A stretch of DNA of 30,487 nucleotides, taken from a virus. Its lineage: Duplodnaviria > Heunggongvirae > Uroviricota > Caudoviricetes. Of the stretch, positions 26,790 to 28,374 are shown in pieces. The notes beneath the pieces are model-generated. The model searched no databases. It had not been told where the DNA came from and worked only from the letters and a program-made list of their open reading frames with translations. The stretch lies in IMG/VR virus record IMGVR_UViG_646311924_000014. One strand, written 5' to 3'. The position numbers and the translations under genes were made by a program. The stretch's first letter is position 1, and every line of letters starts with the position of its first letter.

Positions 26790-28103
26790 ATGGCAGTAAA
26801 GATTTCAGGTGTACTGAAAGACGGCACAGGAAAACCGGTAGAGAACTGCACCATTCAACTGAAAGCCAGACGGACCAGCAGCACGGTGGTGGTGAACACG
26901 GTGGCCTCTGAAAATCCGGATGAAGCCGGTCGTTACAGCATGGACGTTGAGTACGGTCAGTACAGCGTCATTCTGTTGGTGGAAGGATTCCCGCCGTCAC
27001 ATGCCGGGACCATCACCGTGTATGAAGATTCTCAACCCGGTACGCTGAATGATTTTCTCGGTGCCATGTCGGAGGATGACGTCCGGCCGGAGGCACTGCG
27101 TCGTTTTGAACTGATGGTGGAAGAAGCGGCGCGTCACGCTGAGGAGGCGAAGAAGAATGCCGGAGAGGCGGAGACGTCCGCGAGGAATGCCGGCATATCA
27201 GCCAGTCAGGCAGAAGAGAGCGCTGCAAATGCTGACACTTCAGCAGGGGATGCATCGGAGTCAGCCCGGCAGGCGGCAGAAAGTGCAGCCGCTGCAAAGC
27301 AGTCAGAGGAGGCGTCCTCGTCCTCGGCTTCTGCGGCCGCTCAAAAAGCCAGTGAGTCATCACAAAGTGCAGCAGAAGCTGAATTGTCAAGAAAGACGGC
27401 AGAAAGTGCAGCCGGTAATGCAGCCAGGGATGCAACGACCGCAACAGAAAAAGCCCGGGAGTCAGCAGAAAGCGCACAGTCAGCGGAACAAAGCAGGATA
27501 GCGGCGGAAGAGGCCGTAAACCGAATCCCCACCGTGGTGGGACCTCCCGGGCCAAAGGGGGAACAGGGGCCCGCGGGTCCTCAGGGGCCGAAGGGTGATA
27601 AGGGAGAGCGCGGTGACACCGGCCCTGTCGGGGCAACCGGCGAACGGGGACCGGCAGGTGATGCTGGTCCGGCAGGCCCGCAGGGGCCGAAAGGTGACAG
27701 GGGAGAGCGGGGAGAGACCGGTCTGACGGGAAATGCAGGTCCACAGGGTCCAAAGGGAGATACCGGTGCGGCAGGCCCGGCAGGCCCACAGGGACCGAAA
27801 GGAGAAACAGGTGCGGCTGGCCCGGTGGGGGCAACCGGACCTCAGGGACCGAAGGGCGACCCGGGGGAGACACAAATCCGTTTTCGTCTGGGGCCGGGAA
27901 ACATTATTGAGACAAACAGCAATGGCTGGTTCCCGGATACAGATGGCGCACTCATCACCGGACTGACCTTTCTTGCCCCCAAAGATGCCACACGGGTTCA
28001 GGGTTTTTTTCAGCATTTGCAGGTCAGGTTTGGTGACGGGCCGTGGCAGGATGTTAAGGGGCTGGATGAAGTGGGCAGTGATACAGGCAGAACAGGAGAA
28101 TGA
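26790..28103 (+). CDS. stf: Side tail fibre protein with lambda Stf-like N-terminus and a long collagen-like Gly-X-Y segment
   Basis: N-terminal approx. 110 aa match recalled lambda Stf ([25 protein letters not shown]…); 36 uninterrupted G-X-Y triplets; short distinct C-terminal domain. Confidence 0.8.
27540..27866 (+). repeat. Collagen-like Gly-X-Y coding repeat (about 36 triplets) within the tail fibre gene
   Basis: [29 protein letters not shown]… read directly from the translation. Confidence 0.85.
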
Positions 28104-28105
28104 CA

Positions 28106-28374
28106 TGAATATTTTGAGAAAGCTTATGGAGCGTCTGTGTGGTTGCGGAAAGCATGATGACTGTGAACACGGGCAGTCGCTTACAGTACAACTGCGACTG
28201 GGGCCGGCAGACATCCTGGAGTCAGATGAGAATGGCATTATTCCGGAGCAGGACAGGGTAATCACACAGGTGGTGATACTGGATGCGGATAAAAAGCAGA
28301 TACAGTGCATGGTAAGACCGCTGCAAATCCTACGTGCTGACGGGAGGTGGGAAAATATTGGCGGGATGAAATAG
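28106..28374 (+). CDS. Small Cys-rich protein (89 aa) paralogous to the tail-fibre C-terminal domain; possible alternative tip or fibre chaperone
   Basis: AGGAGA RBS; start 2 nt after the stf stop; QSLTVQLRLGPADILESDENGIIPEQDRVITQVVILDADKKQIQCMVRPLQILRADGRWENIGG aligns with the fibre C-terminus [64 protein letters not shown]. Confidence 0.5.

Follow-up and report, generated by a model that had tools for sequence, protein, structure and literature searches.

The window analysed here is a stretch of 30,487 nucleotides (nt; IMG/VR virus record IMGVR_UViG_646311924_000014), which represents the late region of a lambdoid prophage of Escherichia coli. Directly behind the gene for a collagen-like side tail fibre (26790..28103, + strand), a small gene (28105..28374, + strand) encodes a protein of 89 amino acids (aa) and 10.1 kDa. 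Most of this small protein is a second copy of the domain at the tip of the fibre (PfC), and the gene is maintained by strong purifying selection. We tentatively propose that the small protein may assist the fibre tip as an accessory partner, during or after assembly. The arrangement of the two genes is no discovery, as it is already annotated (the RefSeq name of the small gene is 'phage tail fiber C-terminal domain-containing protein') and has been remarked upon in print, in 2016. Shiga-toxin phages often have it. What we add are estimates of selection, the co-occurrence of the two genes, the age of the duplication and peptides from the related phage phi24B.

Paralogy of the small gene and the fibre tip

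The two genes meet in the sequence TGA-c-ATG, with a single base between the stop codon of the fibre and the start codon of the small gene (ATG at 28105). The original prediction, made from the letters of this stretch without database searches, had rightly placed the next gene close behind the fibre stop, but its gap of 2 nt was one base too wide. The ribosome-binding site (RBS) it had assigned to the small gene was found as GGAG at 28095–28098, six bases before the ATG. The small protein consists of a leader (aa 1–27), in which a predicted helix (residues 3–11) is followed by a C12-x-C14 motif, and a stand-alone PfC domain (aa 28–89). The latter matched the full profile (1–64) of PF06820 with 124 bits (E = 3e-36), the gathering score of this family being 25 bits. 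PHROG 576 (phrog_576, an 89-aa 'tail fiber protein') matched the protein over its full length (residues 1–89 on profile positions 1–89 of 89; E = 4e-59).

The short C-terminal tip domain that had been predicted for the fibre (aa 363–426; 27876..28067, + strand) belongs to the same family (PF06820, Phage_fiber_C; E = 6.4e-36, 123 bits). BLASTP aligned the fibre tip and the small protein with 21/63 identical residues (33%; E = 3e-13), and their Smith–Waterman score of 99 compared with 22.2 ± 4.1 (maximum 42) in 500 shuffles (z = 18.9). Residues 28–89 are a paralogue of the fibre tip, in agreement with the original prediction.

Variation was assessed in 87 full-length copies of the small gene from loci, plus the window, which together comprise 58 distinct alleles. 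The Cys-rich leader described before (CGCGKHDDCEH) is present in the window, but the richness does not extend to the whole family. Among the 58 DNA alleles, C12 was invariant, C14 was a cysteine in 57/58 and H17 did not vary, whereas C20 was replaced by R in 35/58 and H22 by N in 11/58. Because these two positions are polymorphic, the leader of the window looks more Cys-rich than that of the family as a whole. A reading of the leader as a zinc knuckle is weakened by the same polymorphisms, and a reading as a lipoprotein signal was dismissed on visual inspection, as too short and polar a stretch precedes the cysteine. In the PfC domain, C68 was conserved among the alleles.

Purifying selection and co-occurrence with the fibre

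The small gene was intact in 86/87 copies. Its start codon and RBS, in the form of the GGAG-N6-ATG junction with TGA-c-ATG, were kept in 85/87 loci, including one locus that is cut at the contig end. Nei–Gojobori estimates of the proportions of synonymous (pS) and non-synonymous (pN) differences gave a pS of 0.15 and a pN/pS of 0.16 for the whole gene. By part, pN/pS was 0.30 in the leader and 0.066 in the PfC domain (pS 0.14), as opposed to 0.25 in the fibre's own PfC at a similar pS (0.12). The small gene is under strong purifying selection, four times stronger than that on the fibre tip. Replacements in the fibre tip were concentrated in hot spots (codons 10, 11, 18, 23, 36, 42, 45, 46 and 48 of its last 77 codons), and the positions of the small protein aligned to these hypervariable positions are invariant. 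This near-invariance next to a hypervariable fibre tip argues that the small protein is not the exposed receptor-binding surface. Synonymous diversity was low in the fibre's C-terminal tail (aa 427–437; 28068..28100, + strand), which contains the GGAG of the small gene (pS 0.03 vs 0.12 in PfC, over only 33 bases).

Of 5426 complete E. coli genomes, 696 carried the small gene, with a median of 10 copies. In this set each of the two, fibre tip and small gene, occurred in 696 genomes (707 records), the numbers of places being 6371 and 6149. Phage records with the fibre tip numbered 296, as did those with the small gene, and the latter include 933W (L0122), cdtI, BP-4795, CP-1639 and 2851. The small gene therefore co-occurs about one-to-one with PfC-tipped fibres. 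It is kept behind three fibre architectures: the 437-aa EPclA of long-tailed lambda-like phages, the 645-aa EPclB of short-tailed 933W-like phages and a collagen-free fibre of 212 aa in a divergent locus (L086, see below).

Beyond these genomes the family is narrow. In 1.84 billion representative proteins, a profile search gave 84 hits only, nearly all of them fragments of the same Escherichia family. In a scan of species-representative genomes, matches were restricted to E. albertii and a contig of a Xanthomonas assembly (Xanthomonas pisi DSM 18956, NZ_JPLE01000138.1, 725 bases). The small protein of this contig was 93% identical to the E. coli gene product, and the contig is most likely a contamination of the assembly.

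A divergent lineage and the age of the duplication

The profile search yielded one divergent orthologue of 79 aa (P0127), on the contig of locus L086 (GCA_008387015.1), which had no match among the complete E. coli genomes. The small gene overlaps the last 14 bases of the 212-aa fibre gene there and is preceded by GGAGG. The fibre carries PfC at its end, without PfN or collagen. An equivalent terminator hairpin and effector genes follow the pair. Between the window and the L086 lineage, the small proteins were 62% identical and the fibre tips 40%, against 30–34% in comparisons across the paralogues. By these values, the duplication is old and predates the split of the two lineages, and the small copy has evolved more slowly than the fibre tip.

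In Citrobacter rodentium and related genomes (L089–L091, 2494–3237), a degraded prophage encodes a 161-aa fusion of PfN and PfC from which the shaft is deleted. The next gene encodes a small protein of 78 aa that has lost four residues, including the conserved Cys68, and is followed by an NleG gene. NleG-like genes lie 3' of the small gene in both the Citrobacter and the L086 loci. The spacing of the two leader cysteines is CxC in both E. coli and Citrobacter, and CxxxC in L086. One unrelated contig, from a metagenomic phage (L087, 3505–5202; Logan SRR17035117), encodes a 565-aa protein (P0143) with four tandem repeats of ~77 aa. The C-terminal half of each repeat is PfC-like (PF06820, 57.6 bits), and collagen repeats come after them. 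PfC-like modules can thus be repeated along one fibre.

Fused and chimeric copies were also observed. A G3T7 homopolymer lies in the PfC coding region of the fibre (28001..28010, + strand), and one-base deletions here or nearby fuse the two genes in the +1 frame. In a clade of Stx2a phages (L088; LC727858.1, 1415–3004), G3 is shortened to G2 beside T7, which results in an open reading frame (ORF) of 529 aa, and the RBS is weakened from GGAG to GGCG. The fusing deletion lies farther upstream in L035 and near the stop codon in L054, where the small gene also has a premature stop. In rare chimeric ORFs (P0058, P0069, P0088, P0089 and P0032), the small PfC is joined to collagen, J, Lom, NleG or a CII-like protein; a further one (P0120) consists of the small leader and the fibre-type PfC. 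The inspected junctions showed 6–10 bases of microhomology, typical of illegitimate deletions in decaying prophages.

Evidence from related phages

ORF68 of phage Sp5 (ECs1229), L0122 of 933W and 'gp59' of phi24B belong to the same family. They share ~93% protein identity with the small protein, and the same junction to a PfC-tipped collagen-like fibre. In the short-tailed phages Sp5 and 933W, the small gene stands behind a lateral fibre of the 645-aa EPclB type, whereas in the window it follows a 437-aa EPclA in a long-tailed lambda-like prophage. ORF68 was described by Mondal et al. (2016) as an 89-aa ORF with the fibre C-terminus domain (PMC5155283). A literature search via locus tags, together with the Gifsy-1 paper, gave nothing relevant on the small gene.

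The fibre class of the window, EPclA, forms a dumbbell-shaped trimer, and eight to nine such genes are present per O157:H7 genome (Ghosh et al. 2012; PMC3368898). PfC alone trimerises, as determined by size-exclusion chromatography with multi-angle laser light scattering (SEC/MALLS), and nucleates the refolding of the collagen helix (PMC3368898).

At the protein level, the published proteome of a phi24B virion preparation contained two peptides unique to the small protein, VITQVVILDADKK and ADGTWENIGGMK, each represented by 3 spectra, compared with 2267 from the fibre. In these data the small protein is at trace level in phi24B virions, far below stoichiometric. The peptide LGPADILESDENGIIPEQDR is a target for mass spectrometry of virions and lysates. 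The supplementary proteome of the 2026 phi24B cryo-electron microscopy (cryo-EM) preprint included database entries for hypothetical fusions of the fibre and the small protein, labelled 'Spike or just gp59?'.

The original prediction had offered a remnant of tip-cassette exchange as one explanation of the small gene. This is contradicted by the low pN/pS of its PfC domain (0.066), the junction kept in 85/87 loci, the retention of the pair in a divergent lineage and the phi24B peptides. A dead remnant is thus unlikely, and the small ORF is a working late gene rather than debris. The two other suggestions, an alternative receptor-binding tip and a chaperone that mimics the tip, are both possible.

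Possible roles of the small protein

The 10-kDa product combines a short leader (predicted helix, two conserved cysteines) with a stand-alone copy of PfC, the 64-residue domain that trimerises and caps the collagen-like side tail fibre. We hold a role as accessory partner of this tip to be the likeliest. As the small gene is the last of the tail operon and its RBS lies inside the final codons of the fibre, the protein would be made beside the fibre's C-terminus. It would form a PfC-type trimer and dock to, or otherwise act on, the C-terminal end of the fibre as a helper or cap, from a gene in the place held by tfa behind lambda stf. Growth on laboratory hosts would not need it, and little of it would stay in the virion. 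In favour of an accessory partner we counted the paralogy, the purifying selection, the coupling at the junction, the terminators, the co-occurrence, the three fibre architectures and the peptides, together with the trimers formed by PfC alone and the lack of a tfa-like gene at the locus.

Several points weigh against an accessory partner. Sp5 ORF68 was listed among the non-essential late genes, with the fibre ORF67 being essential (PMC5155283). K-12 presumably carries no copy of the small gene able to complement it, since K-12 is without collagen-like genes (Ghosh et al.; PMC3368898) and the two genes co-occur. Recombinant EPclA forms trimers in E. coli without the small protein (PMC3368898), which therefore cannot be an obligatory folding chaperone; judging by both reports, it would differ from assembly proteins in not being required for functional fibres. 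Together with the trace level in phi24B, these results weaken a strictly required chaperone as well as a stoichiometric tip. The small protein did not resemble any known tail fibre assembly protein (lambda Tfa / Caudo_TAP), as PF06820 was its sole Pfam match at E ≤ 0.1 and NCBIfam gave none. AlphaFold2 provided no structural argument, since its monomer models were unreliable, with a predicted local distance difference test (pLDDT) of 56 for a 9-row alignment and 49 when the alignment was extended to 15 rows by the divergent orthologue and PfC-like repeats. There was no PDB sequence match to the small protein at E ≤ 10, and the phi24B authors had no confident model of this domain either (2026 cryo-EM preprint). 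Furthermore, an interchain disulfide knot would be compatible with two cysteines per chain beside a trimerisation domain, and would speak for an extracellular, structural role. By analogy with the cystine knot of collagen III, two per chain would be the number for an interchain disulfide ring.

Such a ring would suit a second tip or adhesin, in which a trimer of the small protein, which the two cysteines per chain might staple after lysis, docks end-on to the PfC knob or the 11-residue tail of the fibre and adds or changes receptor specificity on natural hosts, much as T2-type gp38 adhesins do. We consider this unlikely, although it draws on several of the same observations: the domain is that of the fibre tip, a proven trimerisation module (PMC3368898), the two leader cysteines are kept in all three lineages, peptides were present in purified phi24B virions, four PfC-like modules stand in tandem in one collagen-containing fibre (P0143), and dispensability on K-12 suits an accessory receptor-binding protein. 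However, the ~6 spectra against 2267 are far under the ~1:7 expected from length at equal copy number, and the small domain is almost invariant, with the hot spots expected of an exposed binding surface sitting in the fibre tip instead. For the tip of gp61, neither additional density nor a partner has been reported, though this tip was unresolved. At the other extreme, the small gene could be a duplicate without function, carried along by the fibre gene, as the non-essential Sp5 homologue, the many truncated or chimeric copies in databases and the copy within the degraded Citrobacter prophage might suggest. This reading is largely refuted by the selection analysis and is the hardest of all to credit, given a pN/pS of 0.066 at a pS of 0.14, 86/87 intact copies, an orthologue kept at 62% identity where the fibre tip drifted to 40%, and detection of the protein in phi24B.

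Two further explanations make the small gene a source of alternative fibre ends. Mondal et al. (2016) suggested an 'intragenomic reservoir sequence' (PMC5155283), that is, a back-up PfC that becomes the C-terminus of the fibre through a deletion or a one-base indel into the +1 frame. In 81/87 loci this frame has no stop codon over the 138 bases before the ATG (in the window from 27967), one-base deletions joined the genes on at least three independent occasions (the LC727858 clade, L035 and L054), and chimeras combine collagen with the small-type PfC (P0058) or the small leader with the fibre-type PfC (P0120). A single mutation would be enough to give the fibre a small-type PfC as its end. Nevertheless, a role as a reservoir seems improbable: a spare part needs no conserved start codon, RBS or leader, the two copies share ≤ 10 identical bases, which makes homologous exchange implausible, and the chimeras are microhomology deletions with 1–4 member sequences. 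Only 32/87 alleles have the T7 tract, a TAA lies one codon before the ATG in L086, so the open extension is not conserved, and an open run of 46 codons has a ~11% chance of arising anyway. The fusions have the look of decaying prophages or of sequencing errors in the homopolymer, although they could be real variants. A minor fusion beside the normal fibre, made by programmed +1 frameshifting or by transcriptional slippage at T7, is very improbable. In both lineages the small gene does lie in frame +1 relative to the fibre, and the phi24B authors' search database held the hypothetical fusions ('Spike or just gp59?'). No frameshift signal was found by Mondal et al. (PMC5155283), however, and a conserved slippery site of the tail G/GT or prfB type is lacking at this locus: the T7 tract is allele-specific, the extension is absent in L086, and GGT-TTT-TTT is a −1 slippery site, from which a −1 shift would meet a stop 8 codons on rather than the small gene. 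In the examined part of the phi24B proteome file, there were no junction, extension or leader peptides, and the fusion entry exceeded gp61 in one sample only, a low-molecular-weight gel slice. A combined scheme, in which a disulfide- or metal-stapled PfC trimer reversibly caps the knob, or replaces it after a one-base slip in the G/T tract, would give every PfC-fibre phage two interchangeable tips, one hypervariable and one invariant; we regard it as a long shot, on a par with the reservoir.

The fibre gene and its surroundings

Positions 26700–28500 of the window were 100% identical to E. coli O111:H8 chromosomes. Upstream of the fibre, the gene order is that of the right end, with J (22558–26055) followed by lom (26126–26725). 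In the interval between lom and the fibre lies a terminator-like hairpin (26752..26773, + strand), with a stem of 8 pairs, 7 of them G-C, and then a T-run (TTTTTGTGGG). Its read-through by late transcripts would probably need anti-termination. The fibre gene was taken to start at ATG 26790; an in-frame GTG lies upstream at 26784.

The fibre has 437 aa and the architecture of EPclA, with PfN, a coiled coil, collagen and PfC. The lambda Stf-like N-terminus noted earlier was recovered as PfN, the tail-attachment end (aa 1–133; 26790..27188, + strand; PF08400, phage_tail_N, E = 6.3e-69). A solved chain, 9e7m_Ta 'Tail fiber protein' (also in 9mgh), matched fibre aa 1–93 (26790–27068) with E = 2e-51, and through this match a structure of the attachment domain on a tail is available. 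An Ala/Glu/Ser-rich region (aa 134–250; 27189..27539, + strand) is a putative PCoil, the trimeric coiled coil of EPclA, assigned by position and length only. The collagen triple-helix region (aa 251–361; 27540..27872, + strand; PF01391, Collagen) contains 37 uninterrupted Gly-X-Y triplets in a regular-expression count, one more than the 36 counted before. With PfN, one collagen domain and PfC at the C-terminus, as well as 437 aa (PMC3368898, Table 2), the fibre belongs to EPclA.

On the 3' side of the small gene, the tail operon is closed by a hairpin with a U-run, resembling an intrinsic terminator (28386..28420, + strand; −21.3 kcal/mol, z −3.4). A Pfam scan of the window genes revealed no tfa-like gene at the locus; NleG effector genes come after the terminator. 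There are three of them in tandem, paralogues of the NleG family of U-box type III effectors (28487–29062, 29135–29764 and 29846–30487).

Comparison with known systems

Fibre genes are paired with a tail fibre assembly gene in stf-tfa of lambda, H-G of P2 and S-U of Mu. The locus resembles stf-tfa in having a small coupled gene directly 3' of a side tail fibre at the end of the tail operon, and the two fibres share PfN. The position immediately downstream is conserved, through TGA-c-ATG in E. coli and the 14-base overlap in L086. In contrast to Tfa, to which it has no sequence relationship, the small protein is a paralogue of the fibre tip, which Tfa proteins are not, and its Sp5 homologue is unneeded for a functional fibre. 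Adhesins of the gp38 type (T2/T6-like) are likewise small proteins encoded after a distal fibre gene; they bind the fibre tip and are hypervariable. No similarity to them was detected, the small protein is highly conserved, and its association with virions is at trace level only. The closest published fibre is EPclA (Ghosh et al. 2012, PMC3368898; e.g. ECs2717), which has the same length and plan as the fibre of the window (PCoil 116 aa, Col 111 aa), but the EPclA paper does not mention the small gene downstream.

Among the lambdoid and 933W-like prophages of enterohaemorrhagic E. coli (EHEC), most have collagen-like fibres with a PfC tip, at a median of about ten copies per genome that holds them. 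Such prophages move Shiga toxin (Stx) and type III effector genes between strains. A conserved, co-inherited partner of the fibre tip is an obvious candidate in the question of the fibre receptor and the O-antigen barrier. If the scheme of two interchangeable tips were true, tip choice would set the spread of these phages among O-antigen-bearing natural E. coli, and hence that of Stx and effector genes.

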